Assembly: GCA_049303575.1 (NCBI GenBank)
Contig: JBAQNH010000002.1
Coordinates: 380,541-444,540, forward strand
DNA from: Microgenomates group bacterium
GTDB taxonomy: Bacteria > Patescibacteriota > Microgenomatia > UBA1400 > MFAQ01
Length of the DNA: 64,000 nt
Direction of reading: 5' to 3'
How positions within the stretch are numbered: position 1 is the stretch's first letter; each line of letters begins with the position of its first letter. Below, piece by piece: positions 18,050-64,000 of this stretch. The notes beneath the pieces were generated by a model. That model was not told where the DNA came from, did not search any database, and saw only the letters and a program-made list of their open reading frames with translations. The position numbers were made by a program, and so were the translations under genes.

Positions 18050-19231
18050 ATGAACAAACTTCCTTTAGCTGTCGTCGTTATCCCCACCTACAATGAAGCC
18101 GAATCAATCGGTGAAATGATTGACGCTCTCTGCGGCAAAATTTTTCCTAAAATTAAAGACTGGCAATGCAAACTTCTGGTTGTCGACGACACCTCCCCCG
18201 ACGGTACCTACAAAATTGTCCAAAAAAAACAAAAGCAGTATAAAAATCTTGAGCTTTACTTAAATCCTACCAAGGCCGGTATTGGTGGGGCCTACGTCAA
18301 GGGTTTCCGTCATGCTATGACCACTCTTGGAGCAGACGTCATTATCGAGTTTGATGCTGACTTCCAGCATCCCCCCAAAGATATCCCCCTTTTATTAAAT
18401 GAAATTACCGCCGGATACGACTATGTTCTCGGTTCCCGCAAAATTAAAGGAGGTAGTAATCCTAAAGGCTGGGGTTTCAAACGCATTTTCTTCAGCGAAG
18501 TCGGTGGTCTAGTTGCTCGTTTTGGCCTTTTCTTTCCCGGAAAAATGTTCTTCAAAATTACCGACCCTACAACTGGCCTAAAGGCCTCCAGAGTCAAAGG
18601 CTTTGTCGATGCTATGGACATGGACCACCTGTACTCCAGAAATTTTGGTTACAAACTTGAGTTTTTGTACAAAATGGTTCAGCTTGGGGCAAAAGTTAAA
18701 GAGATTCCACTTCAGTTCGGTCTCCGCACCAAAGGTGAATCCAAGATCGAGTCTCAAACCGCCATCGACATTTTCCGCTCCGTTTTCCTCCTTCGTTGGA
18801 ACGACCCCACCACCCAGAAATTTATTAAATTTGGCTGCATCGGTCTTTTTGGTTTTGGTATCAACAAGTTTGGTCTCGATATTTTTTCCAAAGCCCTTCA
18901 AAATATAATCAACACCGTTGGCGTAAGAAACTTCATTGCCAACGCGCTAGCTGCTGAGATTTCTATAATAAGTAACTTCGTTTTAAACAATCTCTGGACC
19001 TTTAAAAACGAAAAACTAATCTGGGGCAAAATCCTTATTCAAAAGTTCCTTACGTTCAATCTTAGTTCGGTTGTCTCCGGTATTATCATCCCCAGTCTCG
19101 TCATCGGTGCCGGGACTCAGATTTTTGGTGACCAGTATCGCTTCCTCTTCCTAGTGTTAGCCGTACTCTTCTTTACGATTCCCCTAAACTGGTTCATCTA
19201 CAATCACGTCATCTGGAAGAAAAAGAAATAG
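18050..19231 (+). CDS. GT2 polyprenyl-phosphate glycosyltransferase (Dpm1-like) fused to GtrA-like membrane domain
   Basis: 'VVIPTYNEAESI...LLVVDDTSPDGT'. A C-terminal 4-TM 'FIKFGCIGLFGFGIN' GtrA-like region follows. Confidence 0.75.
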   Translation: MNKLPLAVVVIPTYNEAESIGEMIDALCGKIFPKIKDWQCKLLVVDDTSPDGTYKIVQKKQKQYKNLELYLNPTKAGIGGAYVKGFRHAMTTLGADVIIEFDADFQHPPKDIPLLLNEITAGYDYVLGSRKIKGGSNPKGWGFKRIFFSEVGGLVARFGLFFPGKMFFKITDPTTGLKASRVKGFVDAMDMDHLYSRNFGYKLEFLYKMVQLGAKVKEIPLQFGLRTKGESKIESQTAIDIFRSVFLLRWNDPTTQKFIKFGCIGLFGFGINKFGLDIFSKALQNIINTVGVRNFIANALAAEISIISNFVLNNLWTFKNEKLIWGKILIQKFLTFNLSSVVSGIIIPSLVIGAGTQIFGDQYRFLFLVLAVLFFTIPLNWFIYNHVIWKKKK

Positions 19232-20867
19232 ATTTTCGAATTCCAAATATAAGAACAATAAATAGTCCTAGTATCCCGATTAAACTAATTACGTTTCCTA
19301 CATTTTCAGTTTTTGTTTGTACGATACTTACTTCAACGATATTTTCTCCCTGAGGCAGATTAGTTTTTAAAAACCCAGTCTCCTCATCTTTTTCAAGATT
19401 GATGTTTCTATCATTATTTTTTACTGACCAGCCTGGCCAATAAAAAAGATTAAATATTATCTGTGAGTTTTCGGCGCTTTTTCCTTGCAATTTTACTCTT
19501 GGACTTACACCTTCAATTATTTCTTTGATTTCGAAATTGGTAGCTTTATGAACAATATTTGGTTTAAAGTAAGGATTAATTCTTACCCAAACAGGTTTTG
19601 CTTCCCAGCCAATATCGGTTGATCCATAAAATAAATGTTGTTCATAAAAATATTGATCATCATATCGAATTTTTTGCCACGTTCTTAAATAGTTTCGGTT
19701 GTTTATTACCAAAAGACCGACAATCATAACCAATAATAAAATTTTCCATTTTCTTCCTTTTAAAGCGTCAAACACCATGGCGGCAAGGACGCTACTGGTT
19801 AACATTGTCAACATCAATATCCTCCAAGGAAATTGAATTTGGGATAGAACAGGGATTATTCTCCACACAAAAACACTGCTTGGACTCATCAAAAATATTC
19901 CCAAATAGGAAAAAAATACCAAATATATTAAAAGTCTTTTGTTTGAATACTTAATCTTTCTTTTAATAAGAACTATCACCAGTAAAATTGTTGATATTAA
20001 AATTACAAATATATTTGCAAATCCAACCTGCATTGACATTCCGTCATTGTCTGTACCAGGATTTGAGTATTCATATTTCCACGGTGAATAAAGCATTTGT
20101 TTCCAAGATGGAAAATGGTCTAGATAATTTACAACGACATTTTTTCCCAATCCAACCATCTTCATTTCAGATATTGCCGGATACCAGAAAAATGCACTTA
20201 TCATAATTGCCAGTACCCCACTCAAAGTAAAAAGCCAAAATAATTTTTTACTTCTATATTTAGATAAAACTAATATTGCATAACAAAGTATTGGTAAAGA
20301 AAATATTAGTAAGCTAACATTATGTGCCAAAGGTAAAAGAGAAGAAACGATCGCCAATATAACAACACCAATATATGTTTTTTTCTTTCCTAAATTATCA
20401 ATCGCCCAAAACACCCAAGGAATAATTGAAAGAGCCAGTACAATGCCAATAGATCCATTCACATACATAGCCAAAAAACGATATGGTGTGTACATAAAGA
20501 GCAAGGACCCTAAGAAACTCGCAGTTTTTGAAAAATGTCCCTTTAAGAAAGCATACATACCCCAAATCGAGGAAAACACACAAATTATATTTAACACTCG
20601 ATAGCTATCACCAAAAGATAATCCGATTACTTTCAATATCGATCCCAAATAGTAAACTAAGGGATAAAAATAATTAAAAGTGGGATATCCATACCCATAT
20701 GCCATATTTGTCCCAAAACGTACCGGAAACTGGCCATTTATAAGTTCGCTATAAAAATGCATCAATCTAACTAAATGAAGTTGACTGTCATGACTCCAAA
20801 AAAAACCATTAATAAACAAATCACGAATCCCTGGAATTGTTATCAATACAAGTAATAGCCAAATCAT
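19209..20867 (-). CDS. Polytopic membrane protein, GT-C-like, 'HDxxxH' family paralog
   Basis: 552 aa with at least 10 TMs. N-terminal 'WSHDSQLHLVRL...GYGYP' is shared with 27017 and the C-half of 30175. It has a C-terminal extracytoplasmic domain. Confidence 0.45.
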   Translation of the reverse strand: MIWLLLVLITIPGIRDLFINGFFWSHDSQLHLVRLMHFYSELINGQFPVRFGTNMAYGYGYPTFNYFYPLVYYLGSILKVIGLSFGDSYRVLNIICVFSSIWGMYAFLKGHFSKTASFLGSLLFMYTPYRFLAMYVNGSIGIVLALSIIPWVFWAIDNLGKKKTYIGVVILAIVSSLLPLAHNVSLLIFSLPILCYAILVLSKYRSKKLFWLFTLSGVLAIMISAFFWYPAISEMKMVGLGKNVVVNYLDHFPSWKQMLYSPWKYEYSNPGTDNDGMSMQVGFANIFVILISTILLVIVLIKRKIKYSNKRLLIYLVFFSYLGIFLMSPSSVFVWRIIPVLSQIQFPWRILMLTMLTSSVLAAMVFDALKGRKWKILLLVMIVGLLVINNRNYLRTWQKIRYDDQYFYEQHLFYGSTDIGWEAKPVWVRINPYFKPNIVHKATNFEIKEIIEGVSPRVKLQGKSAENSQIIFNLFYWPGWSVKNNDRNINLEKDEETGFLKTNLPQGENIVEVSIVQTKTENVGNVISLIGILGLFIVLIFGIRKSISFSSR

Positions 20868-20882
20868 TACTATTGTTTTTGA

Positions 20883-21998
20883 TTATAAGTATGGTGCCCA
20901 ATCGGAAATAGGCGACATGTTATTAAGTAAAAAATTCCAGCTGAATAGCAGTATTGGTATCAAAAGAATTGCCAAGACGATCTTAAACTTCTTTTTTTGA
21001 ATCAGTTTGTCCCAGCCAATCAACACAAATGGTGCAATAGGTAAGATATATCGGCTGATGTCTCGGTGGGCGACCGACAAGGTCGACAGGAAAAACAATC
21101 CGGCAAAGTATGTCTCTATTTTCATTTTCTTTTTCCACATCTTGGCTACGCCAATACCGAAAATCAACCAAGTCCAGATCACATCTTCCAGCCAAAAATT
21201 TCCCACCCAAACCTGCCCCTTGGGAGCAAAGATAGAAAACGGTGGCCAAAAAAGATGAATATTATCTCCGCTGTTAAAGTATGCCCAAAAATCCCCCGTT
21301 CGAACTCCGTAAAACCAGAACAAAGCCAAGACGGCCAGTGCTTGAATGAGCAACGGCAGATACTTAAACTGAATTCTCTTTAACTTTACCGATTCCACCA
21401 GGGCATACAATCCATAAGCCCCAAGTAAAATCACCGCCGGACTTTTAGTTAATTGTGCCAAAAACCCAAATAGTCCCGCAAGCCAAAATTTTTCTTTACG
21501 GAAGTAAAAAATACTGGCAATAATGAAAAACAAAAACCACGGTTCCGGTGAGCCAATACTGCGCAAGGCCACCCATCGCGCCGGTAACACCAAAAATACC
21601 AAACATAACCATAACGGATTTTTGCTCAATCCAAACTCCTTAAGATATTTAAAAAGCATCAAAAAACACAACACACTCCCGAGGAGTGTCGCAAGAAGCA
21701 TGGCTGTCGGTCCTTTGAGTACTGTGTCAAACACGGAAATGATCGCCGGGTACAGGGGAAAATGTGCCGGGTAATACTCAACTGGCAGGGGATTAGAAAA
21801 CCGAGTTCTGATTGCCTCGGTGTTATACCAAGTTTTTTCTATGATCAAGTAGTTTGGCCCATCAAAATTTTGCCAAAGAATCTTAGTCCCTTCGGAAAAA
21901 TTCATACCCCAACCGGGAAGCTGAACTTTCAGAACAAAAGGCAACCAAACTAATAAGGAAAAAAGAACTACTGCGATAGCTAAATATGCTCGTTTCAT
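20883..21998 (-). CDS. Polytopic membrane protein, putative GT-C glycosyltransferase
   Basis: 371 aa, multi-TM. Co-directional with the 19209 gene. Confidence 0.4.
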   Translation of the reverse strand: MKRAYLAIAVVLFSLLVWLPFVLKVQLPGWGMNFSEGTKILWQNFDGPNYLIIEKTWYNTEAIRTRFSNPLPVEYYPAHFPLYPAIISVFDTVLKGPTAMLLATLLGSVLCFLMLFKYLKEFGLSKNPLWLCLVFLVLPARWVALRSIGSPEPWFLFFIIASIFYFRKEKFWLAGLFGFLAQLTKSPAVILLGAYGLYALVESVKLKRIQFKYLPLLIQALAVLALFWFYGVRTGDFWAYFNSGDNIHLFWPPFSIFAPKGQVWVGNFWLEDVIWTWLIFGIGVAKMWKKKMKIETYFAGLFFLSTLSVAHRDISRYILPIAPFVLIGWDKLIQKKKFKIVLAILLIPILLFSWNFLLNNMSPISDWAPYL

Positions 21999-22018
21999 CT
22001 ATCTCTTAGTATATACTT

Positions 22019-22735: not shown

Positions 22736-24216
22736 TCAACTGGATCAAAAAAAATAAATTTGAATTTGCTTTGCTGCTTGGAATTCTTTTTATTGCTCTC
22801 TTTCTTCGCCTCTTTAGAATCAGTGAATTTATGACTTTCCTGGGCGACGAAGGCCGCGACGTTCGTATTGTCCGCGACCTCATCACCAAAGGTAATCTTG
22901 TTTTTATTGGCCCGCAAACCAGCATTGGCAACATGTATCTTGGCCCTCTCTACTACTACTTGATGGCTCCCGCCCTCTTCCTTTCCGGTCTCAATCCTGT
23001 TGGGCCTGCCGTGATGGTTGCCCTCCTAGGTGTCTTTACTGTCTGGCTTACTTGGTATGTTGGTCGAAACTGGTTTGGGAAAGTCGCTGGGCTCATTGCC
23101 GCTCTTCTTTTTGCCGTTTCCCCGGTTGCCATCATTTACTCCCGCTCGTCTTGGAACCCCAACCCCATGCCACTTTTTTCGCTTCTTTGTATCTGGGGTA
23201 TCTACCAAGTCTGGCAGCACAAAAAATATTTTTGGTTACCTTTGGTTGGTATTTTTTATGCTTTTGCAATGCAAATGCACTATCTCGGTCTGCTTCTTGC
23301 TCCCATCCTTGGCCTCTTCTGGTTGCTTTCATTACTCCAAGTTAAAAAAGACAAAGAACTAAAGTCTCAGTTCCTCAAAAAAACTCTGATTGCGGTACTT
23401 CTTTTCCTACTTCTTATGTCGCCCCTCGTTTTGTTTGACCTTAAACATTCCGGTATGAACTACAACGCTTTCAAAGTCTTTTTTACCGATCGTCAAACAA
23501 CCGTCAACCTTAATCCTGCAAGATCCGATCGTTTCCTTCCGGTGATTTACACTACCGTCACCGACTTGGTTCTTGCTCGTCAGGAAATTTATATTCCTCT
23601 TATTTCCGCCGCCATCTTTCTTCTTTCCCTTCTCGTTTTTATCAAATCAAAGTGGCGAACTGCTCTCAAACTTCTTTTTGCTTGGCTACTTCTCGCTCTT
23701 CTTGGTCTTGGGGTTTACAAACAGCACGTCTACATCCATTATTTAGGTTTTATTTATCCGGCTATTTATCTTCTCCTGGGAGCCATTCTTGGTTTTATTT
23801 CCACCAGAAAAGGAATAATTCTTAAAATTCTCGCCGCCATTTTTCTCGCCGCTCTTATTTTTCTCAATATTAAATACAATCCCACTTTTGGCAACCCCAA
23901 CCGTCAGCTTCAACGCACCGAGGAAGCCGTTGACTTAATCATCAAAGAGTCCAAAGGGGAGCCTTTCAATTTTGGTCTGATTGCCAAACAAAACTACGAC
24001 GAGTCTTACCGTTACTTCCTCGAAAACAAAAAGGCTAACTTAGTTCGTGGCGAAGTCAAAATTGTCGATCAGCTCTTTGTTATCTGCGAGGATGGTGACA
24101 AGTGTCAACCGGAGGGAAATCCGGACTGGCAAATTGCTGTTTTTGGACCATCACACGTTGTCTCCATGTGGCAAATTGATTATCTAAAAATCTATCGACT
24201 CGAACACACCAAATGA
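22732..24216 (+). CDS. GT-C glycosyltransferase, ArnT/PMT-like (GT39/GT83-like)
   Basis: About 12 TMs. A 'DE' motif sits in the first extracytoplasmic loop ('FLGDEGRDVRIV'). Confidence 0.55.
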   Translation: MINWIKKNKFEFALLLGILFIALFLRLFRISEFMTFLGDEGRDVRIVRDLITKGNLVFIGPQTSIGNMYLGPLYYYLMAPALFLSGLNPVGPAVMVALLGVFTVWLTWYVGRNWFGKVAGLIAALLFAVSPVAIIYSRSSWNPNPMPLFSLLCIWGIYQVWQHKKYFWLPLVGIFYAFAMQMHYLGLLLAPILGLFWLLSLLQVKKDKELKSQFLKKTLIAVLLFLLLMSPLVLFDLKHSGMNYNAFKVFFTDRQTTVNLNPARSDRFLPVIYTTVTDLVLARQEIYIPLISAAIFLLSLLVFIKSKWRTALKLLFAWLLLALLGLGVYKQHVYIHYLGFIYPAIYLLLGAILGFISTRKGIILKILAAIFLAALIFLNIKYNPTFGNPNRQLQRTEEAVDLIIKESKGEPFNFGLIAKQNYDESYRYFLENKKANLVRGEVKIVDQLFVICEDGDKCQPEGNPDWQIAVFGPSHVVSMWQIDYLKIYRLEHTK

Positions 24217-24752
24217 GTACCACTAACGGCAAATTAATTTGGATTGACCTCGAGATGACTGGACTTAATCCCTACAAAGATAAAGTTGTCGAGATTGCCA
24301 CCATCGTCACCGATGCTAATCTGGACGTACTGGCAGAAGGACCGGATTTGGTAATTCATCAACCCTCAGAAATAACAAACAAGATGATTGCCTGGAATCA
24401 AGAACACTTTGCTCAGTCAGGGCTCTTAAACGCCATTCACGACTCAAAAATATCTTTAGCCGAGGCCGAAGAACAAACGCTCAGCTTTCTTAAGAAATAC
24501 TCTCCTGCCAACACGGCTCTTTTAGCTGGCAACTCTGTTCACATCGACCGTGAATTCATCAGAGTTCATATGCCCAAACTCGCTGCCTTTGTTCATTATC
24601 GTATTATTGATGTCTCCACGATCAAAGAACTCGCTCTTCGCTGGTATCCTGAAGTCAAACCCTTCGTAAAAGTTGAGGCACATCGTGCTCATGACGACAT
24701 TCTCGAGTCCATAGATGAGCTAAAATACTATCAGGCACGTATATTTAAATAA
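24213..24752 (+). CDS. orn: Oligoribonuclease
   Basis: 'LIWIDLEMTGLNP', 'DKVVEIATIVTD', C-terminal 'HRAHDDI'. 179 aa. Confidence 0.8.
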   Translation: MSTTNGKLIWIDLEMTGLNPYKDKVVEIATIVTDANLDVLAEGPDLVIHQPSEITNKMIAWNQEHFAQSGLLNAIHDSKISLAEAEEQTLSFLKKYSPANTALLAGNSVHIDREFIRVHMPKLAAFVHYRIIDVSTIKELALRWYPEVKPFVKVEAHRAHDDILESIDELKYYQARIFK

Positions 24753-33369: not shown

Positions 33370-33370
33370 T

Positions 33371-34288
33371 ATGTCCAAAATAAATATCTCTGCTGTAATC
33401 AACACCCGAAACGAAGAAAAAAATATCGAAGACTGTCTCAAGACCCTTCATTTCGCCGATGAAATTATTGTGGTTGATATGGAGTCGACGGATAACACTA
33501 AGAAAATTGCCAAAAATTTTACCGACAAAGTCTTTGACCACAAAATGGTTGGCTACGTTGAGCCAGCCAGAAACTTCGCCATCAGCAAAGCCGTCGGCAA
33601 CTGGGTTCTCATTGTCGACGCCGATGAACGCATCCCTAAATCTCTTGCCAGAAAACTAATAGAGATTACTCAAGAAGATGATGTCGATTTTGTAAGAATT
33701 CCAAGAAAAAATCTTATTTTCGGTCAATGGGCCCAACACTCTCGCTGGTGGCCGGATTACAACATTCGCTTTTTCAAAAAAGACACCGTCGAATGGCAAA
33801 ATGAAATTCACTCCATTCCGGTAACTACCGGTATTGGCATTAATCTTGATGCCGATGAATCTCTTGCCATCGAACACCATCACTACAACACTATTGATGA
33901 GTACTTTGAGAGAGCTCTTCGCTACTCCACCCAACAAGCCAAGGAGTTAATTGATTCTGGATATAAGTTCGACGCTAAAGACCTTATCACCAAACCAATA
34001 GGGGAGTTCATTAGCCGTTTCTTTGCCGGTGATGGTTACAAAGATGGTCTTCACGGTTTAGTTCTCGCCTTTTTGCAAATGTTTTCTGTCATGCTCATCT
34101 ATTTAAAAATCTGGCAACACGAAGGTCACGAACCTAAAAAAGCCGCTTTATTTACTCCCATCTGGCAAAATCTTTTCCTCGAAAAATTCAAGGAACTTCG
34201 TTACTGGTACCTCACCGTCCTCATCCAGTCCCAACCCCAAAAAGTCAAAAGATTTTTGCTTAAAGTCAAACGAAAGTTTTCAAAATGA
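33371..34288 (+). CDS. GT2 glycosyltransferase
   Basis: 'ISAVINTRNEEKNIEDCL...IIVVDMESTDNTKKIA'. Paralog of the 35193 and 54881 genes. Confidence 0.65.
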   Translation: MSKINISAVINTRNEEKNIEDCLKTLHFADEIIVVDMESTDNTKKIAKNFTDKVFDHKMVGYVEPARNFAISKAVGNWVLIVDADERIPKSLARKLIEITQEDDVDFVRIPRKNLIFGQWAQHSRWWPDYNIRFFKKDTVEWQNEIHSIPVTTGIGINLDADESLAIEHHHYNTIDEYFERALRYSTQQAKELIDSGYKFDAKDLITKPIGEFISRFFAGDGYKDGLHGLVLAFLQMFSVMLIYLKIWQHEGHEPKKAALFTPIWQNLFLEKFKELRYWYLTVLIQSQPQKVKRFLLKVKRKFSK

Positions 34289-46563: not shown

Positions 46564-46572
46564 AAAGGGTAA

Positions 46573-48273: not shown

Positions 48274-48280
48274 TTAATTT

Positions 48281-54884: not shown

Positions 54885-55759
54885 AAAACAAACGTCAAAC
54901 AATCTCCGTCGTTCTGGCAACCTTCAACGAGGAGGCAAACATCAAGGCTTGCTTGGACTCGGTCAAAGACTGGGTCGATGAAATGATCATTGTCGATGAA
55001 CAAAGTACCGACAAAACAAAAGAGATCGCCGAAAAGTTAGGAGCCAAAGTTTACTCAGAACCTCACGAGCAAATCTTTCATATCACCAAAAACAAAGCAA
55101 TAAACAAAGCCAAGTCCGCCTGGATTCTTCAGTTGGATGCCGACGAAAGAATTACTCCCGAAATGAAAAAGGAAATCATCGGCATTCTGGAAGGGGAGTA
55201 CTTCGGCTACGACAGTTGGATCAGTCCGGTAAGAAAATCCATCAATAAAATTGTGAAGATTTTTCCCGAGCCAAACAAACTCGATAAACCTGCCTTTGCC
55301 TACTGGCTTCCTCGCAAGAATTTTTTCCTGACAAGATACTTAAAAAATACTGGTCAGTATCCCGATCCCGTCATCCGTCTATTCCAAAAAGGCAAAGCCA
55401 TTCTTCCTGCCAAAGACGTCCATGAGCAGATGAAAGTGGATGGAGTTGTTGGTTGGCTCAAAACCGATCTCGACCACTACGCCACTCCGGACTTCAGCAG
55501 ATATTTATTAAGAGAAAATCGCTACTCCAGTCTGCAAGCTAGATTTTATAAAGAAGCCGGTCTTAAAGTAAATTTCTTTAGAACAATCAATTTCTTATTC
55601 TTTAAACCACTTGGTACCTTCCTCGATCTCTATATCCGTCGCCGTGGTTTTTTGGATGGTTTCCCCGGATTTGTTTTTTCTCTCTACTCCGGACTTCACC
55701 ATGCCTTTTCCTACATGAAGCTCTGGGAACTGTACAAAAACGAAACCTATGGAAAATAA
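54881..55759 (+). CDS. GT2 glycosyltransferase
   Basis: 'ISVVLATFNEEANIKACL...IIVDEQSTDKTKEIA'. Confidence 0.65.
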   Translation: MKNKRQTISVVLATFNEEANIKACLDSVKDWVDEMIIVDEQSTDKTKEIAEKLGAKVYSEPHEQIFHITKNKAINKAKSAWILQLDADERITPEMKKEIIGILEGEYFGYDSWISPVRKSINKIVKIFPEPNKLDKPAFAYWLPRKNFFLTRYLKNTGQYPDPVIRLFQKGKAILPAKDVHEQMKVDGVVGWLKTDLDHYATPDFSRYLLRENRYSSLQARFYKEAGLKVNFFRTINFLFFKPLGTFLDLYIRRRGFLDGFPGFVFSLYSGLHHAFSYMKLWELYKNETYGK

Positions 55760-56768
55760 AATAAAAGTTTTCCTGGACAGCGGCACTCACTCTCAAGGGA
55801 GAGGTGTCGGCTTCTATGCTGAAAACCTCGCCAAAGGACTAGAGAAACTTTCCGATGTTACTCTTACCGACGCCAACCCCGATCTTATTCACTATCCCTT
55901 CTTTGATCTTTTTTACCCCACTCTTCCCTACAAAAAATTAAAACCAACCATAGTTACTATCCACGACGTCACCCCCTTGGTCATGTCAGACAGATATCCC
56001 AAGGGAATTAAAGGAACAATAAACTTCTTTCGTCAATGGCTCTCCCTTCAGTCTGTCTCGGCCATTATCACCGACTCGGAAAACTCCAAAACAGACATCG
56101 AAAAATATCTCTTTGTTCCCAAAGAAAAAATCTTCGTCACTCCTCTTGCTATCGACCCAGTCTATGGCAAGGAAATCTCGGAAGAAAAGCTCCTAGAAGT
56201 CAAGAAACGACTTAATCTTCCCGATAAATTCATTCTTACTGTCGCAGGTGGTCCAAATCCAAATAAAAATCTTCCCTCCCTTGCTGAGGTCACCGATCGT
56301 CTGGACATTCCCTTGGTTGTTGTCGGCAAAGGCATGCTCCAAGAAGTCAGAGAACCGGTGCATCCTGAGCTTATCGATATGATTCGTTTGAAGGTCTACA
56401 AGCATCTTATTCTCCCCGGCTTCGTTAGTAATGATGATCTAAACGCTCTCTATCGTTTGGCTACCCTGTACGTCCAACCAAGCCTCTATGAAGGTTTTGG
56501 ATTACCCCTCTTAGAAGCTATGACTGCCGGTTGTTTGGTCGCAAGTTCCAACTCCAGTAGTCTTCCCGAGATCTATCATGAGGAAGCCATCACCTTTAAT
56601 CCCCGAAAACTTACCTCAATGGAAAAAGCTATCAAAAAAGCCCTTGCTCTCTCACCAAAAGCAAAACAAAAGCAGATTGAGCTCGCAAAAACTAAAGCCG
56701 CCACCTTCTCTTGGCCCAAGACCGCCAAAGCCACTTTCGAAGTCTACAAGCAAGTAACATGTCGCTAA
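55749..56768 (+). CDS. GT4 glycosyltransferase
   Basis: 'EGFGLPLLEAMTAGCLVASSNSSSLPEI'. Confidence 0.7.
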   Translation: MENKIKVFLDSGTHSQGRGVGFYAENLAKGLEKLSDVTLTDANPDLIHYPFFDLFYPTLPYKKLKPTIVTIHDVTPLVMSDRYPKGIKGTINFFRQWLSLQSVSAIITDSENSKTDIEKYLFVPKEKIFVTPLAIDPVYGKEISEEKLLEVKKRLNLPDKFILTVAGGPNPNKNLPSLAEVTDRLDIPLVVVGKGMLQEVREPVHPELIDMIRLKVYKHLILPGFVSNDDLNALYRLATLYVQPSLYEGFGLPLLEAMTAGCLVASSNSSSLPEIYHEEAITFNPRKLTSMEKAIKKALALSPKAKQKQIELAKTKAATFSWPKTAKATFEVYKQVTCR

Positions 56769-57892
56769 TATCAATTATAAAAAAAGTTGTCGTTTGGCGC
56801 CTCCTGATATTTGCTGTTGCTGTCGCCGCCATGTTTATTCTTCCGGCACGTCCACGTTTCACCAATCTCACTCCTACGGCATCGACAGGGGACCTGCTTA
56901 CTATGTGGTCCAATTTTGACGGCCTGCATTTTCTTTCAATAGCCGAGTATCGTTATGATTACCCGGGGAAAACTGATATGTCTTATGCCTTTTTTCCGGT
57001 ATATCCTTGGCTCATCGGGACACTAAATATCTTTGGTTCCTACATTATTTCTGGTCTCTTTCTTTCCCATCTATTTTTTATAGCCGCCCTTTTCTTCCTT
57101 TACCGTCTAGTTTTACTTGACGAAAAGCCTCGCATCGCCAAGTCCACCATCTTTTTGGTTCTTCTTTTTCCAACTTCAGTTTTCTTTGGTTCTGTCTACA
57201 GCGAGTCTCTATTTCTTCTCCTTGCTGTTCTCAGTTTCTATTTTGTCCGTAAGAAATATTTTCTGCTAGCTTGTCTGGCTGCCATGATTGCTTCAGCGAC
57301 AAGAATTACCGGAATTTTTCTCTGGCCAGCTATCGCCTATGAATTCTGGCTTACTTACGGTAAAAGTCTCAAAAGATCACTTAATCCCAGCGCCATCTGG
57401 CTTGCTCTTCCTCCACTTGGACTTCTCTCCTATATGCGTTTCCAATTGGAAAAAGTCGGTGATCCTCTCTTTTTTGCTCATATTCAGTCTGTCTTTACTG
57501 GTCGCAGCACAGACAAACTAATTCTCGTTCATCAAGTCTTTTATCGCTACTTTAGGATGCTTTTCCTCACTGACCCCGCATCATCTGTTTATTTCACCGT
57601 CGTTTTGGAGTTTCTATCAGCTAGTCTGATTTTAGGTGTCTTAATATTATCTATCAGAAGAATTCGTTTCTCTTACTGGTTTTTTATTCTCCTTTCATTT
57701 GTTTTACCCAGTCTATCAGGCACCTTTATGAGTGTCCCTCGCTACGCTTTAGTTCTCTTCCCCGTGTTTATATTTTTAGCCAAGTTTCTAGATCGTCTAC
57801 ATCCCTTCGTCCGTTATGCCTACTACGTTCTCTGTATCATTCTCTCTATTCTTTCTGTTGCCTTTTTCACCCGCGGCTACTTTATCGGATGA
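56759..57892 (+). CDS. PIG-V/GT76-like mannosyltransferase family membrane protein
   Basis: 'WSNFDGLHFLSIAEYRYDY...AFFPVYPW' resembles the PIG-V family WDxxHY...AFFPLxP block. Multi-TM. Start chosen at the internal ATG. Confidence 0.45.
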   Translation: MSLISIIKKVVVWRLLIFAVAVAAMFILPARPRFTNLTPTASTGDLLTMWSNFDGLHFLSIAEYRYDYPGKTDMSYAFFPVYPWLIGTLNIFGSYIISGLFLSHLFFIAALFFLYRLVLLDEKPRIAKSTIFLVLLFPTSVFFGSVYSESLFLLLAVLSFYFVRKKYFLLACLAAMIASATRITGIFLWPAIAYEFWLTYGKSLKRSLNPSAIWLALPPLGLLSYMRFQLEKVGDPLFFAHIQSVFTGRSTDKLILVHQVFYRYFRMLFLTDPASSVYFTVVLEFLSASLILGVLILSIRRIRFSYWFFILLSFVLPSLSGTFMSVPRYALVLFPVFIFLAKFLDRLHPFVRYAYYVLCIILSILSVAFFTRGYFIG

Positions 57893-58005: not shown

Positions 58006-59109
58006 ATGAAATACCCCCTCTTTTCTTCCGAGTCGGTTTGTGCCGGCCACCCCGACAAGATCTGTGATCAGATCTCTGATGCCGTATTAGATGCCGCTCT
58101 AAAGGTCGACCCTCATTCTCGAGTGGCCTGTGAGACACTGGTTACGACAAATAAGTTGGTTCTTGCCGGAGAGATTACTTGTTCCGAATCTCTTGATTAC
58201 AAATCCATTGCTCGTAAAGTAGTTAATGATCTTGGTTTTACCAAAGACATCTATCATTTTGGCCCCAAAACCGATATCGAAGTCTACATCCACGAACAGT
58301 CCAAAGACATTGCGGTGGGTGTTGACGATGGTGGAGCAGGAGATCAAGGTATGATGTTTGGCTATGCCACCAACGAAACTCCCGAGTTTATGCCCCTACC
58401 TATCACTCTTGCTCACGAACTAGTCAAAATAATGGACAATCTGGCCATAAAAGATCTACCTTACCTACGTCCAGATGGAAAATCACAGGTCACTGTTCAT
58501 TATGAAAATGGCCGACCTGTTTCCATCAAAAAAATTGTCCTTGCCAAACCCCATGAACCAAAAATTGACAAAGAAGAAGTAAAAAGGGAATTATTAAACC
58601 AAGCCATTTTTCCTTTACTGGAAAAATATCATCTGCCTAAAGTTTTAGAAAAAGATATCATCTTCAACGGTACTGGAGTTTGGGAGATTGGTGGACCTGC
58701 CTCGGACACCGGTGTCACTGGTAGAAAAATTGTTGTTGATACCTACGGCGGCATGGGCAGGATTGGTGGTGGATGTTTTTCAGGAAAAGATCCAAGTAAA
58801 GTAGACAGATCAGCTGCTTATGCAGCCCGTTTCCTAGCCAAAAACATTGTGGCACAGGGTTTAGCCAACCGTTGTGAAGTTCAACTTGCTTATGCAATTG
58901 GCACCAAATATCCCGTCGGTAAAGCCATAGAAACTTTTGGCACAGCCCAAAAAGATCAGAAGATAATTGAAAACTACGCCTGGGGTTTATTGGATCTTTC
59001 TGTTGGTGGAATCATCAAGGCACTCAATCTTCTGCAGCCAATCTATCAAAGTACAGCTTGTTACGGTCATTTCGGTCATCTGGAATACCCCTGGGAGAAA
59101 CTAGTCTAG
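58006..59109 (+). CDS. metK: S-adenosylmethionine synthetase
   Basis: 'SESVCAGHPDKICDQISDAVLDA', 'GGGCFSGKDPSKVDRSAAYAAR'. 367 aa. Confidence 0.85.
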   Translation: MKYPLFSSESVCAGHPDKICDQISDAVLDAALKVDPHSRVACETLVTTNKLVLAGEITCSESLDYKSIARKVVNDLGFTKDIYHFGPKTDIEVYIHEQSKDIAVGVDDGGAGDQGMMFGYATNETPEFMPLPITLAHELVKIMDNLAIKDLPYLRPDGKSQVTVHYENGRPVSIKKIVLAKPHEPKIDKEEVKRELLNQAIFPLLEKYHLPKVLEKDIIFNGTGVWEIGGPASDTGVTGRKIVVDTYGGMGRIGGGCFSGKDPSKVDRSAAYAARFLAKNIVAQGLANRCEVQLAYAIGTKYPVGKAIETFGTAQKDQKIIENYAWGLLDLSVGGIIKALNLLQPIYQSTACYGHFGHLEYPWEKLV

Positions 59110-59130: not shown

Positions 59131-59799
59131 GTGAAAACACTTGTTATTATTCCTGTTTATAACGAAAATTTTCGTGCTGTAGACACGATCAATAAGGTAC
59201 TAAAAAACACAAAAAATGATTTAATCGTCGTTGATGATGGTTCAAATGACGATACCTGGAAAATATTGAACAGAAACTTTAAAGACAATGAAAGAATTAC
59301 ACTTTTGTCACATGTAATAAATCTTGGAAAGGGTGCGGCTATGAGGACTGGGGTGCTAATGGCATGGAAAATGAAAGGCGACACCGTCATTTTTATCGAC
59401 GCAGACGGTCAACACAATCCAAAACATTTAAAAAAATTTGAAAAAGAACTGAAAAAAAATGATATTGTCTTCGGATTTAGGAAGCTTAACGGAGATATGC
59501 CCTTTGTAAGAAGGTGGGGAAACATCATCGCCAAAAGTATACTAAAACTTTTTTTTAACATAAAAAGAAAAGAATTTTTATGTGGTTTCCTAGGGTTCAA
59601 CAAATCCATTTATAAACAAATAAAATGGAGATCTACGAGATATGGAGTTGAGACCGAGATTGCTACTAGGGTTGGAAAAAACGGATTAAACTTTTCGGAA
59701 GTTGAAATTGACACAATATACATTGATAAATACAAGGGCGTGTCCATTTTTGATGCTATAAAGATATTGTTTCAGATTCCTGGATGGTACTATAATTGA
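59131..59799 (+). CDS. GT2 glycosyltransferase (Dpm1-like)
   Basis: GTG start. 'LVIIPVYNENFRAV...LIVVDDGSNDDT'. Confidence 0.65.
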   Translation: MKTLVIIPVYNENFRAVDTINKVLKNTKNDLIVVDDGSNDDTWKILNRNFKDNERITLLSHVINLGKGAAMRTGVLMAWKMKGDTVIFIDADGQHNPKHLKKFEKELKKNDIVFGFRKLNGDMPFVRRWGNIIAKSILKLFFNIKRKEFLCGFLGFNKSIYKQIKWRSTRYGVETEIATRVGKNGLNFSEVEIDTIYIDKYKGVSIFDAIKILFQIPGWYYN

Positions 59800-59803
59800 A
59801 ACC

Positions 59804-60661
59804 ATGTACAAAATTGGAATCATTGGCTACGGAGTCGTTGGAAAAGGTATCCATCGGTTGTTCAAAAATGAAGTTACTGCAATTTTTGACCCATTTATAA
59901 ATGAAGACGGGAAAAGCTTTGCTACAAATATTGGTGGACAAGAATACGATTTTACAAATAAGAAAGGTTTCAAAGGTTTGGATCTGGCTGTAATTAGTGT
60001 TCCCACGAACGAAACATCCACAGGAAAAGCAGACACAAGCCTAGTAAGAGACACACTCAGTTGGCTTTCAAAAGAAATCAATTTCAAGGGGGTTATATTG
60101 GTTAAATCCACCATGCCTCCAAGTGAGATGGCTGAGTTAGGAAAAAAATTTAAGAGATTTGTCTTTAGCCCGGAATATATGGGAGAATCAAAATATTTCA
60201 CTCCTGCATGGAAATATCCTGATCCATTAAACATGGAGGCTCACACCTGGCAGGTCTTTGGTGGAGAAAAACGTGATACTTCTTTCTGCATAGATATTTT
60301 TAAAAGAAGAATGGGTGTCGATACTGTCTTTTTCCAAGTCGATCTAATGACCGCGGTTCTCACAAAATATATGGAGAATAGCTTTTTTGCGATGAAGGTG
60401 ACCTTCTGTAACGAGTGGTTCGAAATTGCCAAAACGTTTGGAGTTGATTACAATGAGTTAAGAGAGTGCTGGCTGGCAGATCCCAGAATTAACCGAAACC
60501 ACACCCTAGTGTTCCCCGAAAGTCGTGGCTATGGGGGTAAATGTTTTCCCAAAGACACAAAGGCGATTATTTTTGACGTCGAAAAGGAAGGTTACGAACC
60601 AAAGCTCATGAAAGCCATGGATAAGACAAATAAGGTCTTTAGGAAAGCAAACGACAAATAA
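59804..60661 (+). CDS. UDP-glucose/GDP-mannose dehydrogenase family protein lacking the C-terminal UDP-binding domain
   Basis: Rossmann 'KIGIIGYGVVGKG'. 'GGKCFPKDTKAI' is like the catalytic-Cys GGSCFPKD block. Only 285 aa. Confidence 0.5.
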   Translation: MYKIGIIGYGVVGKGIHRLFKNEVTAIFDPFINEDGKSFATNIGGQEYDFTNKKGFKGLDLAVISVPTNETSTGKADTSLVRDTLSWLSKEINFKGVILVKSTMPPSEMAELGKKFKRFVFSPEYMGESKYFTPAWKYPDPLNMEAHTWQVFGGEKRDTSFCIDIFKRRMGVDTVFFQVDLMTAVLTKYMENSFFAMKVTFCNEWFEIAKTFGVDYNELRECWLADPRINRNHTLVFPESRGYGGKCFPKDTKAIIFDVEKEGYEPKLMKAMDKTNKVFRKANDK

Positions 60662-60678
60662 TAAGTTAAAATATATAT

Positions 60679-61026
60679 ATGTCCATCATCGGTGTTCAGC
60701 TTTTAGTATTTTTATTTTGTTTTTTAATGCTCTACAACGTCTTTTTATATTGGAAAAAAAATGAGATAGGGCTAAAAGGTGCAATGGTTTGGGTAATAAT
60801 CTGGGGAGGGTTACTTTTTATTACTTTTTTCCCCAAATACATGGAACCTTTTGTAAGAGAATTGTTTTTTGTCAGACTATTTGACCTAGTTACCTTTGTC
60901 GCCTTAGCCATCATCTCTTATGTCATGTTTCAGAATCATGTGAGAACAAATAGACTCTTAAAAGAAGTTGAAATTCTAGTTAGAAAAATGGCGGTTAAGG
61001 AAGTTTCCAAAAAGAAGATAAAATGA
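60679..61026 (+). CDS. Small 3-TM membrane protein, hypothetical
   Basis: 115 aa. Lies between the dehydrogenase-like gene and the GT4 gene. Confidence 0.35.
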   Translation: MSIIGVQLLVFLFCFLMLYNVFLYWKKNEIGLKGAMVWVIIWGGLLFITFFPKYMEPFVRELFFVRLFDLVTFVALAIISYVMFQNHVRTNRLLKEVEILVRKMAVKEVSKKKIK

Positions 61027-62171
61027 AATTCAAAGGCAAAATACTGGTATTTTGCCCATACTACCCACCTCATGTAGGGGGTCTAGAAAGCCACGCAGAT
61101 GAGTTCAACAAACACCTTTCGGAGAGAGGTTGTGAAATCACAGTCTTCACACCCAGATTACCTTCAAGTGCTCCAGAACAAGAACTTAGATATAAAAACG
61201 TCAATATAGTCAGATTTCCGGCTTTTGAGATCATCCCTAACTGGTTTTTACCCAAATTTTGGCAAAAAAAATACAAAAAATTAGTAAATGATATATATCA
61301 GAAAGAATTTGACATTATCATTTCAAGAACAAGGTTTTTTTTCACCTCCATAATGGCACTCTCTTACGCCAGAAAAAGAAAAATCAAATGGATGCATATA
61401 GAACACGGATCTGATTTTGTTCAACTATCAAACAGTCTTCATTCATTAATTGCCAAACTTTTTGATTACACTCTTGGAAGACAAATCCTAAAAAAAGCTA
61501 GCGTCGTGGTTGCTAACTCCAAAGCTTCTGCCGTCTTTTGTAAAAAGATATATAGGAAAAGAAACTATCAAGTTATTTATCGCGGTATTGAAGTAGATGA
61601 AATTGAACATATACCACCCAGCAAAGATATTGTTAATAAATACAAAGGTATTTTGAAAATCATATTTACTGGTAGATTAATTGATGGAAAAGGTGTCGGT
61701 GATTTAGTAAATGCAGTGTCAAAATTAAGAATAAAAAACTGGATACTATTTATAATTGGCATTGGTCCCCAAATAAATAATTTGGAGACTCAGACAAAAG
61801 AACTAAAAATATCAGATAAGGTAATATTCTTTGGTCAAAATAATAAAAGGGAATTAATTGGAACACTAAAGGCAAGTGACATTCTGGTTAATCCGAGCTA
61901 CACAGAAGGCTTACCAACTAGCGTTATCGAGGCGGCAATTTGTGAAAAGCCAATAATCGCAACCAATGTTGGTGGCACTAAAGAAATTATTGGTGACAAC
62001 TCAGGAATTCTGATACCCGCTAGAAATCCATCCATATTGGCTGAAAAGATAGAATATTTATCAAAAAACCAAGACCTAAGAATCAAGATGGGGCACCAAG
62101 CAAAAATTGAAATACAAAACAAATTTAACTGGGACAATTCAATAGACAAATATATTGCCTTACTAAAATAA
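61023..62171 (+). CDS. GT4 glycosyltransferase
   Basis: 'EGLPTSVIEAAICEKPIIATNVGG'. Confidence 0.7.
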   Translation: MKFKGKILVFCPYYPPHVGGLESHADEFNKHLSERGCEITVFTPRLPSSAPEQELRYKNVNIVRFPAFEIIPNWFLPKFWQKKYKKLVNDIYQKEFDIIISRTRFFFTSIMALSYARKRKIKWMHIEHGSDFVQLSNSLHSLIAKLFDYTLGRQILKKASVVVANSKASAVFCKKIYRKRNYQVIYRGIEVDEIEHIPPSKDIVNKYKGILKIIFTGRLIDGKGVGDLVNAVSKLRIKNWILFIIGIGPQINNLETQTKELKISDKVIFFGQNNKRELIGTLKASDILVNPSYTEGLPTSVIEAAICEKPIIATNVGGTKEIIGDNSGILIPARNPSILAEKIEYLSKNQDLRIKMGHQAKIEIQNKFNWDNSIDKYIALLK

Positions 62172-62173
62172 AT

Positions 62174-64000
62174 GATTGAAATACTAAAAGGAATACTCGG
62201 TATATTTCTTCTAATCGGCGCAACCGACATGATTGGTCGCTTATTTTGGAAAAGAGAAGATGGCTTGCCCGGAAGATGGCTATCTTGGTTGGTATCTTTC
62301 TTCACCATCATTACCCCCATCTTTTATATTCTTAATCTACTTAAACTAGAAATAAATTATTATTCAGCAATCGGAATTTTAATAACTATTTGGTTGGGTA
62401 CTGGGCTAATTTCAAAAAAGAAATTACTTGAATTTGGCAAACAAAAGATCAAAGCAATATTCTTTTGGCTCCTTGCCTATCTTGCTCTACATCTTATTTT
62501 TTACTCAATATATTTCACAATTCCGGAATGGGATAGTTATGGCAACATATCCAGTGTAAGAGATAATTTAGTTAGTGGTTTTATAGTCTCAAGCTACAGA
62601 CCACTATTCAGTGCCTCCATGACAATTTTCTCACTAGTTTCTTCTGTCGACCCCTACATTTTATTTCCAATCGTATTGATCGTTGCTCAATCTAGTTTAC
62701 TATTTTCTGTTTATCTTTTTACTAAAGACAATAAAGATAAATTCCTAAGAGGTTTAATACTTGTAAGCACCCTCGCTGTACCCGTAATCAATATGGAAAT
62801 TGATATTCCTAGAGCTCAAAGCGTGCTTATGGTTTTTATTCCAATATTTTTTTATTACCTAAAAGTATATTTTTCCGAGAAAAAAGATTTTCGTTATTTA
62901 ATAGTGGTTTTTTGGATTTCCATAGTGGGTCTAATGTATCACGAATTATTTGCAGTTTTAGTACTTGTTGCCTTTTGTTCCGCAGCAAAAATCATAATTA
63001 AATTATGGATTAACGGAGGCAAAAAAGACAAGATAATAATTACTTTGATTTGTTTTGTTACATTTTTGTTGGGATGGATTGCATACGATCATTTATTTAC
63101 TATTAGTTATGCGTTTGGCCTTGCAAATAATGTCATCAACAATTTGATACACAATTTTAGTTGGAAATGGTGGTTTTTGAGTACTGATCTTTCTGCAGAT
63201 AATATGTCCGTAGCTTGGATTGGTTGGAAATCAATCGCAATGTATTATGGTTACTATTTATCACCAATTATCTTTGGTTGGATAATATTGCATATTTTTT
63301 CAATTTTTATACATCGTAAATTATCAAAAATTCATATATGGTTATTATTTACTGGAATATTGTATTTTGCTTTAACAGAAATTCTTCCCAGAATGAACAT
63401 TGGCATATTGCCGGAAAGGTCTTGGATATTTTTCGATATTATTGTCTTGCTTTTTACCGCCAGTTTCCTAAAAAATATTAAACACTCATATTTAATAAAA
63501 GCGTTTATTGTTTTTCTAATTATTGTTTCAATGTATGGTAGTTTCGTCGTAGCCATGGGAAAAAAATCCCTGACATCATCAGAGGAAATGAAAGCAGCCG
63601 TGTGGATAAAAAACAATACTCCAAAAGAATCTATATTTCTAAGTCAACAAGCAAACAATCAAATAGTTAGATTTTTTGGAGAAAGAAATATGTTATCCCC
63701 AAACAAAGAATTCTTTTTGTCAGAAAAACTAATTGAACAGAGTGAGGTAAATATTTGTGAATCGGATATCATTTCAACAGAAATCAATAAAACAAAAAAT
63801 CTGTTATTGAATTTTGATATTTTGAATGGAAATACAAACAATCTCGCTGTATTTGTAAATGAAACAAGAGAAAAAATTAAAAAATTTAAAACTATTTGTT
63901 ACCCAGTAGTAACTTTTTCTCACTCCCCTTTATATGTAATGTATTCATCGGTCAAATTAGAAGGGCTATACTCCACCCGAGAATGGTGGCGAGAAGTAAA
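62174..64000 (+). CDS. Polytopic membrane protein (partial, runs off the window end), putative GT-C-like
   Basis: The ORF opens at the ATG at 62174 and continues to the window end with no stop. Many TMs. It is absent from the ORF track only because it is incomplete. Confidence 0.45.

Follow-up and report, generated by a model that had tools for sequence, protein, structure and literature searches.

In the synthesis of mycobacterial lipomannan (LM) and lipoarabinomannan (LAM), cytoplasmic glycosyltransferases (GTs) of the GT-A and GT-B types act first, using nucleotide sugars, and extracytoplasmic GT-C enzymes then continue with polyprenyl-phosphate sugars (PMC3229680). The streptococcal GacI/GacJ/GacK/GacL system, in which GacJ is a DUF2304 protein, follows the same logic (10.1101/180810). 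A cluster with similar components can be found in a Microgenomates bacterium of the candidate phyla radiation (CPR, or Patescibacteria), at positions 18050-64000 of the 64,000-nucleotide stretch of DNA analysed here (the window). This 46-kb block is vertically inherited, and it probably directs the assembly of one complex, structurally conserved envelope glycoconjugate in two compartments. It occupies about 6.5% of its 704,398-bp contig, which is part of a metagenome-assembled genome; the host genome is very small, under about 1 Mb, and the share of the block in the organism's DNA is put at roughly 5-6%.

The block is tiled by 36 genes, as determined from a map of open reading frames (ORFs) together with Pfam scans. 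Adjacent genes overlap or are separated by 21 bp at most, the sole exception being a gap of 113 bp before metK. There are 10 GT2 genes, three GT4 genes, one gene for a Wzx-type flippase, 17 for polytopic proteins with GT-C evidence and one for an unassigned membrane protein; the remainder consists of orn, metK, a short gene resembling Ugd and a DUF2304 gene of the GacJ type. The GT2 genes (Pfam Glycos_transf_2, E 3e-10 to 3e-35) start at 18050, 22019, 24755, 33332, 34285, 35193, 40918, 41786, 54881 and 59131, and the GT4 genes (Pfam) at 35999, 55749 and 61023. The GT-C genes start at 19209, 20883, 22732, 25503, 27017, 30175, 37065, 38611, 42589 and 43784, and further downstream at 44926, 46573, 48281, 49932, 51608, 53247 and 56711. 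With 34 of 36 consecutive genes related to glycans, the run cannot be due to chance.

A previous interpretation made from the letters alone, referred to here as the sequence-only reading, had described a block of glycan genes of about 46 kb, and the ORF map and Pfam scans confirm it almost gene for gene. It had named annotation by dbCAN or hidden Markov models (HMMs) as a test, and Pfam does place most of the block's ORFs in GT families. Three GT4 genes, a Wzx-like flippase, a PIG-V/GT76-like protein and minus-strand segments at 19209-21998 and 38611-40887 were all correctly recognized, as was the lack of an obvious sugar role for orn and metK only. Its figure of more than 15 polytopic GT-C-like proteins agrees with the 17 supported by HMM, profile or fold evidence. 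The richness in GT2 genes holds as well, although their number is 10 rather than about 11, and four are indeed Dpm1-like (18050, 22019, 24755 and 59131, with best matches to DPMS, ArnC, ArnC and PpgS). A YfhO-like protein is present, but there are two (38611-40887 and 19209-20867, both on the minus strand) where one had been counted.

Several known systems share parts of this arrangement. The LM, LAM and arabinogalactan pathways of mycobacteria and corynebacteria (Ppm1, PimE/MptA-C of GT87, AftA-D, EmbA-C, and Rv3779 with PpgS/Rv3632) make the same switch from cytoplasmic enzymes to many GT-Cs acting outside. As in mycobacteria, the window has a GT87-like enzyme, fold matches to PimE and AftA, and a PpgS-like GT2 with a DUF2304 partner. 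The mycobacterial genes are largely dispersed in a 4.4-Mb genome, whereas here about 17 GT-Cs are found in one 46-kb block of a far smaller one. Also unlike mycobacteria, no phosphatidylinositol-mannoside or decaprenyl-phospho-arabinose genes were seen, and sequence identity to the mycobacterial enzymes is negligible. With the Gac system the locus shares a GT2 polyprenyl-phosphate-sugar synthase, a DUF2304 helper, a Wzx-like flippase, GT-C proteins and a rhamnose context, which here consists of rmlABD upstream and two rhamnosyltransferase-like GT2 genes (34285 and 41786). However, the Gac backbone is exported by the ATP-binding cassette (ABC) transporter GacD/E, which has no equivalent here; the Gac locus has one GT-C instead of about 17; and the GT2 and DUF2304 genes are here separated by the Ugd-like gene.

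Assembly in the lumen of the eukaryotic endoplasmic reticulum (ER; DPM1/ALG5, RFT1, ALG3/6/8/9/10/12 and PIG-M/PIG-V) follows the same overall logic with the same folds. ER-like parts of the locus are an end-to-end homologue of dolichyl-phosphate-mannose synthase (DPMS), a MOP flippase, a GT-C of the ALG6 fold (TMq 0.70), and Pfam matches to PIG-V and PIG-M. In contrast to the ER there is no STT3/PglB-type oligosaccharyltransferase with a WWDYG motif, the context is that of a bacterial operon, and the likeness is one of folds only. Finally, the CsbB/GtcA/YfhO systems of teichoic-acid glycosylation have in common with the locus a GT2 synthase, a GtrA-type domain and GT-Cs of the YfhO family. 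The YfhO-type genes here are a minor share located in variable slots of low GC, though, and no teichoic-acid genes are present in the window.

Evidence for vertical descent can be found in both gene order and composition. Relatives were collected by scanning GTDB species genomes with the family of a 1064-amino-acid (aa) protein encoded at 30175-33369, which gave 453 stretches. The best 80 of these loci are labelled as Collier-, Woese-, Shapiro-, Davies- or Blackburnbacteria, or else have names that are generic or placeholders that are plainly in error. Gene counts given below for the upstream half of the cluster refer to loci around this 1064-aa anchor, and those for the downstream half to a metagenome scan anchored on the last gene of a tandem array. 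Neighbouring genes recur in order around the 1064-aa anchor, and in two Collierbacteria genomes both halves of the cluster are found on one contig in the same order (DDWV01000001, loci L006 and L002; LCKO01000006, loci L027 and L004).

A comparison of synteny, proposed in the sequence-only reading, shows that order and orthology are kept across at least five candidate families. The compositional analysis that it suggested as a check for horizontal acquisition gives a negative answer, since the core resembles the housekeeping flank and only three low-GC segments deviate. GC content is 0.419 at 20883-38657 and 0.414 at 40918-57892, against 0.420 in the flank, and tetranucleotide frequencies of core and flank are correlated with r 0.90-0.93. 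No tRNA was found in the window, and no integrase or transposase family turned up in Pfam scans of its ORFs. With this composition, no mobility genes or tRNA of these kinds, and gene order kept across genera, the term "island" does not apply in the sense of horizontal transfer: the core block is vertically inherited in Microgenomates and is not a genomic island. Such gene-by-gene conservation is unlike the hypervariable loci for O-antigen or capsule, and suggests a structurally fixed, important polymer with few exchangeable decorations.

The following route is proposed for its assembly. Six GT2 enzymes of the ordinary kind, together with two or three of the GT4 family, would act at the cytoplasmic side of the membrane and build a lipid-linked oligosaccharide from nucleotide sugars, of which dTDP-rhamnose is a likely one. 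The Wzx-type protein would flip this oligosaccharide across the membrane, and four Dpm1/ArnC/PpgS-like GT2 enzymes would load single sugars onto polyprenyl phosphate. Outside, about 17 GT-Cs would use these lipid-monophosphate sugars to extend and branch the glycan, one linkage per GT-C, while the 1064-aa protein would contribute a GT-C activity linked with a domain that is hydrolase-like or serves remodelling. The invariant glycan core would come from the conserved genes, and lineage-specific decorations from the three low-GC slots. What was observed are the families and folds of the proteins, the order of the genes, their conservation and the catalytic motifs that they keep; from these the route extends to probable donors, a probable sequence of steps, a single product instead of several, and an acceptor. 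A multi-step pathway in which lipid-linked sugars are flipped and then transferred outside by distinct GT-Cs had already been put forward in the sequence-only reading. It fits all testable family assignments, and the interpretation as a whole is partly supported.

Four genes are expected to supply the lipid-linked single sugars. The first, at 18050..19231 on the plus strand, encodes a predicted polyprenyl-phosphate hexose synthase (Pfam GT2 E 1.9e-26 and GtrA_DPMS_TM E 5e-10). It aligns end to end with the Pyrococcus Dol-P-Man synthase 5mlz (residues 8-389 against 26-372, E 5.9e-42) and consists of a GT2 catalytic domain and a C-terminal domain of the GtrA/DPMS type with four transmembrane (TM) segments. 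Homologues in two relatives (L049 and L026) are 63-75% identical. The fusion of GT2 and GtrA domains noticed earlier in this gene is real but nothing special, and a novel fusion was rejected as an explanation because the full-length match to 5mlz identifies it as the normal architecture of archaeal DPMS. A soluble Dpm1/ArnC-like GT2 is encoded at 22019-22735 (plus strand; Pfam GT2 E 3e-35). Its best matches in the PDB are ArnC (8e-16), DPMS (4e-12) and GtrB (7e-11), and its gene overlaps the GT-C gene 22732-24216 by 4 bp, the two forming a donor-plus-transferase pair. A second soluble enzyme of this kind, at 24755-25516 (plus strand; GT2 E 1e-29; top NCBIfam match ArnC, 63 bits, below cut-off), overlaps the GT-C gene 25503-27017, which is followed by the GT-C gene 27017-28726; a homologue adjoins the anchor in 43 of 58 related loci. 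The fourth enzyme, 59131, has PpgS as its best NCBIfam match, end to end at 75 bits, and a DUF2304/GacJ-type gene lies nearby. PgfS, which belongs to a protein-glycosylation machinery, is also among the NCBIfam matches of the Dpm1-like enzymes.

The other cytoplasmic transferases occur in compact groups. At 33332..37063 on the plus strand, the GT2 genes 33332, 34285 and 35193 and the GT4 gene 35999 (Pfam) form a block whose members have homologues adjoining the anchor in 69 of 72, 66 of 71, 66 of 67 and 61 of 65 loci, respectively; 34285 is rhamnosyltransferase-like (TIGR01556, E 2e-18, below cut-off). Two more GT2 genes at 40918..42604 (plus strand; 40918-41796 and 41786-42604, Pfam GT2 E 2e-24 and 9e-20) are conserved in Collierbacteria loci, and 41786 is again rhamnosyltransferase-like by NCBIfam. 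After the tandem array, a tail block at 54881..57892 (plus strand; Pfam) comprises the GT2 gene 54881 (59 of 64 loci), the GT4 gene 55749 (50 of 54) and the PIG-V-like GT-C gene 56711 (39 of 46). The flippase gene at 28707..30182 (plus strand) encodes a Wzx/MOP-family protein for lipid-linked glycans with about 12 TM segments (Polysacc_synt_3 E 5.4e-52, Polysacc_synt E 1.8e-20) and is kept in all 68 of 68 related loci.

The 17 GT-C proteins were recognized by several kinds of evidence. Pfam matches to PMT, PMT_2, STT3, YfhO, PTPS_related or Mannosyl_trans2 reach the cut-off for 11 of them and fall just below it for 20883 and 37065, which makes 13 polytopic proteins with Pfam matches. Of the other four, 46573 was assigned by paralogy, 42589 through its homologues (GT87), and 43784 and 30175 by Foldseek. 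A crude hydropathy scan found 5-13 hydrophobic segments per protein, the lowest value, 5 in 20883, probably being an undercount; models of 30175 and 43784 made with AlphaFold2 (AF2) are multi-helix bundles. An acidic motif just after TM1 is present in all 16 GT-Cs inspected. It reads GDE in 22732, VDE in 25503, HD in 19209, HDD in 27017, HPD in 42589, SGD in 43784 (both of these invariant among homologues), NFDG in 20883 and 56711, and DE in the tandem copies. These proteins probably use sugar donors linked to polyprenyl phosphate. Matches to both PIG-V and PIG-M occur in Pfam among the block proteins and their homologues.

Two small GT-Cs lie next to the tandem array. The protein 43784-44929 (plus strand), 100% identical to the publicly annotated "hypothetical protein WA052_02700", has no Pfam match. 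Its AF2 model, built from 28 homologues, has pLDDT 93.3 and pTM 0.91, and its residue D33 is invariant. The top 19 PDB matches found by Foldseek are all of the GT-C fold, led by ALG6 (E 6e-6, TMq 0.70) and including PimE (5e-4), ALG3, STT3, PIG-U and ArnT; the protein is thus of the ALG6/PimE fold. Its neighbour 42589-43806 (plus strand) is GT87-like: it has no Pfam match of its own, but 30 of 40 aligned homologues match GT87, and H30 and D32 are invariant (400 representative relatives).

The remaining GT-Cs outside the array are varied. A small protein of 371 aa at 20883..21998 on the minus strand is PIG-V/PMT-like (Pfam PMT E 2e-4, below cut-off; NCBIfam glycopolymer family AZOBR_p60025, E 1.8e-11; hhalign probability 60-69% to profiles A2 and A3). 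Despite its strand it belongs to the conserved core, with 70-78% identity and the same orientation in relatives. The protein 22732-24216 (plus strand), paired with GT2 22019, matches PMT_2 (E 1.7e-12) and the N-terminal region of STT3 (E 1.5e-5), and hhalign relates it to the tandem family at 98%. A role for it as an oligosaccharyltransferase was rejected, because the STT3 match is weak (25.2 bits) and the protein, at 494 aa, has neither WWDYG nor a large C-terminal domain. The two GT-Cs after GT2 24755, at 25503-27017 and 27017-28726 (plus strand; Pfam PMT and PMT_2), have homologues adjoining the anchor in 52 of 59 and 58 of 62 loci. The PIG-V-like protein at 56711-57892 (plus strand) matches Mannosyl_trans2 with 31.2 bits against a cut-off of 22.4, over profile positions 20-180 of 443 only, and the GT87-like family A4 with an hhalign probability of 72%.

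At 44926..54884 on the plus strand, six GT-C paralogues of 545-566 aa are arranged in tandem. Five of them match Pfam PMT_2 (E 1e-7 to 8e-13); the sixth, 46573-48273, has no Pfam match and joins the family by its 35% identity to 44926 (E 6e-60). Identity is 26-37% among the paralogues but 45-72% between a paralogue and its positional counterpart in another genus. As counterparts in other genera are closer than neighbours in the array, the duplications must be old, each copy having been retained, and the pattern implies that the six copies hold old, fixed subfunctions. The DE after TM1 is invariant in all six, and each shares with ArnT and the Aft/Emb enzymes a soluble domain at the C terminus, here about 120 aa long. 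The last protein (53247-54884) is 100% identical to one that NCBI labels "glycosyltransferase family 39 protein". Among loci around its gene, homologues of 49932 and 51608 are found in 44 of 45 and 51 of 53. A rearranged array of six PMT_2 genes, one of them 55% identical to 53247-54884, occurs on MHTX01000008.1, labelled Candidatus Wildermuthbacteria (Parcubacteria group). Either this contig is mis-binned or the array also exists outside Microgenomates.

The 1064-aa protein (30175..33369, plus strand) has no sequence match in Pfam, NCBIfam or the PDB, and only 188 detectable homologues among 5.8 billion proteins. Wherever a homologue carries a taxon name, this is a Microgenomates group or an unclassified bacterium; product names, where given, read "hypothetical". 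Its AF2 model (pLDDT 89.2, pTM 0.85) has three parts. The first (about residues 27-490) is an extracytoplasmic (beta/alpha)-barrel resembling hydrolases and deacetylases; Foldseek matches it to 3lm3, a "putative glycoside hydrolase/deacetylase" (E 1e-11), and to deacetylases of the CE4 type. The second (about 495-925) is a TM core with fold matches to DPY19, a C-mannosyltransferase (1e-6), and to AftA, an arabinosyltransferase of mycobacteria (3e-6, TMt 0.54), and with invariant D558 and D594 in the loop corresponding to the post-TM1 loop of GT-C enzymes. The third is a C-terminal domain. Invariant Asp, Glu and Arg residues are present in the N-terminal domain but no invariant His, which makes a canonical metal-dependent CE4 deacetylase unlikely. 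On its model, the protein is a putative lineage-specific GT-C fused to an extracytoplasmic hydrolase/deacetylase-like domain. Some relatives (L005 and L026) have a second, distant paralogue (23-26% identity) inside the cluster, between the homologues of 35193 and 35999. In many Shapiro-, Woese- and Blackburnbacteria (L058-L084) only a short form is found, corresponding to about residues 500-1064 and thus without the hydrolase-like N-terminal domain.

The three segments that deviate from the core are 19209-20867 (GC 0.319, GC3 0.27), 38658-40887 (GC 0.374) and 59131-64000 (GC 0.336), and their tetranucleotides are more alike among themselves (r 0.93-0.96) than to the core. The first encodes a YfhO/PTPS_related-type GT-C on the minus strand (PTPS_related 30.3 bits; YfhO 28.6 bits against a cut-off of 28.5, which is marginal). 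It is 26% identical to 27017 over its full length (E 7e-38), and in four relatives (L006, L027, L049 and L026) no homologue lies between those of 18050 and 20883. The position of 37065 and 38611 is a slot that holds differing GT-C or YfhO genes in either orientation, with homologues only 30-55% identical or absent. Here it is occupied by a GT-C at 37065-38657 on the plus strand (PMT_2 E 2.4e-5, 25.0 bits, just under the cut-off; hhalign 94% to A3) and by a YfhO-type GT-C at 38611-40887 on the minus strand (47.5 bits against 28.5). Variable low-GC slots thus account in part for the minus-strand segments, 20883-21998 in the conserved core being the exception.

The third segment is a module of the side-chain type (59131..64000, plus strand; Pfam), with the GT2 59131, the Ugd-like 59804, the DUF2304 gene 60679, the GT4 61023 and a membrane protein from 62172 onward. 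The GT2 59131 is PpgS/GacI-like and 60679 is of the GacJ type. DUF2304 is the GacJ/Rv3632 family, and PpgS/Rv3632 is the equivalent pair in mycobacteria (10.1101/180810). The region after 56711 differs among genera, although one close relative (L088) has it too, with 71-95% identity; the pair of PpgS-like GT2 and DUF2304 recurs after 56711 in several other loci. The ORF at 62172 is 637 aa in full, as judged from the full-length version in L086, and has GT-C-like topology only. No family, profile or PDB match was found for it, and hhalign probabilities against A1-A4 are at most 1.5%, so it is counted as a polytopic membrane protein only. The Ugd-like gene at 59804-60661 (plus strand) encodes a UDP-glucose/GDP-mannose dehydrogenase-like protein of only 285 aa. 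Its GxGxxG at the N terminus and its catalytic GGKCFPKD are retained, while the entire UDP-binding domain at the C terminus is missing. A fresh pseudogene was considered and rejected, given that the homologue in L088 is 88% identical, two Logan contigs encode the same 285-aa product, and GxGxxG and the catalytic Cys are kept. The gene instead looks like a short form that has been conserved.

A number of results weigh against a single two-compartment pathway. Pfam finds no initiating phosphoglycosyltransferase (PGT), Wzy, chain-length regulator, LCP protein, ligase or oligosaccharyltransferase in the window, so the start and end of the pathway are missing there; none was seen in the neighbouring loci inspected, either. 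Among the window proteins scanned for WWD or WWDYG, which include every complete ORF of at least 150 aa, none has such a motif. A single-sequence search of the PDB with a tandem GT-C gave no significant match to any solved GT-C, and with a profile built from all six paralogues the match to ArnT had an E value of only 0.1. All NCBIfam scores of the four Dpm1-like enzymes, as of many other matches, are far below the curated equivalog cut-offs, and the sugar specificities are therefore guesses. Only 18050 has a GtrA/DPMS TM domain; 22019, 24755 and 59131 have no predicted TM segment, which leaves three of four synthases without a predicted membrane anchor of their own. Soluble catalytic subunits are known, as in human DPM1 and the Ppm1 domain of mycobacteria. 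Scans for sigma-70 promoters and intrinsic terminators over 17-64 kb were at or below shuffle expectation and are uninformative on the limits of operons, and both co-transcription and a single product are presumed. The label "surface glycosylation", used in the sequence-only reading, goes too far, as the acceptor cannot be derived from sequence and initiating PGT, ligase, LCP and oligosaccharyltransferase are absent from the window.

Alternatively, the PMT_2-type GT-Cs, mainly the six tandem paralogues, may be protein O-glycosyltransferases of the Pmt/PMT type, which would move sugar from polyprenyl phosphate directly onto the Ser/Thr residues of secreted proteins, for example pilins, S-layer proteins or sortase substrates. 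In that case the paralogues would have different protein clients or act as hetero-oligomers, and the cluster would mainly be a protein-glycosylation system. Pfam PMT/PMT_2 matches, the invariant DE as in the PMT family, the GT39 label of NCBI, PgfS among the matches of the Dpm1-like enzymes and a 1538-aa sortase-type surface protein encoded 10 kb upstream are in line with such a role, and yeast PMT paralogues act as heterodimers. Still, PMT_2 also covers ArnT-type enzymes acting on lipids and glycans, the 120-aa soluble domain of the tandem proteins is as in ArnT and Aft/Emb, no MIR domains are present, and direct protein mannosylation has no use for Wzx, six non-Dpm1 GT2s, GT4s or GT87-, ALG6- and PIG-V-like glycan elongators. 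This makes it an unlikely account of the cluster. The genes could also be several independent decoration systems of two or three components (GtrA/GtrB/GtrX, CsbB/GtcA/YfhO or GacI/J/K/L type) that happen to be co-located and add side-chain sugars to different polymers made elsewhere (teichoic-acid-like, peptidoglycan or lipoglycan). Four separate donor synthases, two of them directly followed by GT-Cs, would be expected of such systems, as would the two YfhO-type proteins, the GacI/GacJ-like pair and low-GC slots that behave as exchangeable cassettes. The ratio of 17 GT-Cs to four synthases is far from 1:1, however, the cluster includes a full cytoplasmic GT2/GT4 set with Wzx, and its tight, overlapping and deeply conserved gene order better fits one coordinated pathway; a collection of separate systems is quite improbable.

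A horizontally acquired, strain-variable island for a surface antigen, like those for O-antigen or capsule, is the least credible explanation and can nearly be dismissed. Three segments of lower GC (0.32-0.37) with similar tetranucleotides, the absence of 19209-20867 from beside its conserved neighbours in four relatives and the variable region downstream of 56711 are features that such an island would have. The core, on the other hand, has the GC and tetranucleotides of the flank; the window has no tRNA, and Pfam scans of its ORFs revealed neither integrase nor transposase families; order and orthology extend across at least five candidate families; and there is no PGT, Wzy or Wzz in the locus. 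In Pfam, window ORFs and the related loci L002-L004 have no match to Bac_transf, MraY/WecA-type, Wzy_C or Wzz families, so this is not a canonical Wzx/Wzy-dependent O-antigen or capsule locus.

Two genes with no obvious sugar role are embedded in the block. The orn-like gene at 24213..24752 (plus strand; Pfam RNase_T E 2e-30) encodes a DEDDh 3'-5' exonuclease. It overlaps the upstream GT-C gene by 4 bp and is found in the same place in 19 of 58 related loci, with no apparent functional tie to glycan synthesis. The housekeeping gene metK, for S-adenosylmethionine synthetase (58006..59109, plus strand; all three Pfam MetK domains, E 1e-34 to 9e-59), opens the variable tail; just 9 of 43 loci have it after the homologue of 56711.

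Ordinary genes for envelope and housekeeping functions were identified by Pfam in the left part of the window, among them FtsX, a PcsB-like M23 peptidase, VanZ and trmD. The genes rmlA, rmlB and rmlD at 11496..14173 (plus strand; NTP_transferase 2e-59, GDP_Man_Dehyd/Epimerase 1e-82, RmlD_sub_bind 3.5e-33) lie upstream of the block and are a possible source of precursor through the dTDP-rhamnose pathway; no rmlC (3,5-epimerase) was seen in Pfam scans of ORFs within the 64-kb window. The next ORF after rmlD (14173-14949, 258 aa) has one N-terminal TM segment and no Pfam match. The region 4211-10345 (plus strand) encodes the 1538-aa surface protein, in which repeated domains of the SpaA/prealbumin fold are combined with an adhesive domain resembling pectate lyase; after it come a 314-aa ORF that matches no family and a sortase. 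This is a pilus or adhesin locus of the Gram-positive type and a candidate substrate for glycosylation. FtsX with an extracellular domain, followed by a coiled-coil M23 peptidase resembling PcsB (11-2049, plus strand), forms an arrangement of the FtsEX-PcsB type, a cell-division hydrolase system of Gram-positive cocci. The GC skew of the plus strand is strongly negative (-0.13 to -0.28) over most of 1-58 kb regardless of gene orientation, and near zero at about 5-9 kb; at 58-62 kb, where metK and the low-GC tail lie, it becomes positive (+0.06 to +0.14). In the related order UBA1400, to which Collierbacteria belong, a strand disparity of G and C is reported to extend over the whole chromosome (PMC7143001). 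The local change of sign in the tail may reflect a recent inversion or acquisition.

No published description was found of the cluster or of how it is conserved, nor of the GT-C array or the fusion protein of 1064 aa. For a related Microgenomates genome, PMC7143001 only counts "29 genes of glycosyl transferases". The domains are all of known superfamilies, and public annotation already labels several of the genes GT39, GT2 or GT4.

The CPR/Patescibacteria have shed most biosynthesis, and little is known of their envelopes. That a block of roughly 35 genes with about 17 GT-Cs is kept gene by gene in a tiny genome therefore argues that its product is important for the cell. Microgenomates are presumed episymbionts, and the product may have roles in envelope integrity, host contact or phage interaction. 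Tentatively, and with more doubt than belief, a broader proposal can be made: Microgenomates would make a lineage-defining, structurally invariant and complex envelope heteroglycan, with a complexity similar to that of mycobacterial arabinogalactan or LAM, built largely outside the membrane by at least 12 conserved GT-Cs. The 1064-aa protein would then be a new bifunctional extracytoplasmic polymerase or remodelling enzyme, and the polymer would be central to envelope integrity or attachment to a host. Concrete targets for study are provided by the end-to-end DPMS homologue, the six ancient PMT_2 paralogues and the lineage-specific GT-C fusion labelled only "hypothetical". At the level of annotation, and for organisms that are uncultured, the finding appears solid, and it is suggestive for the biology of the CPR envelope.

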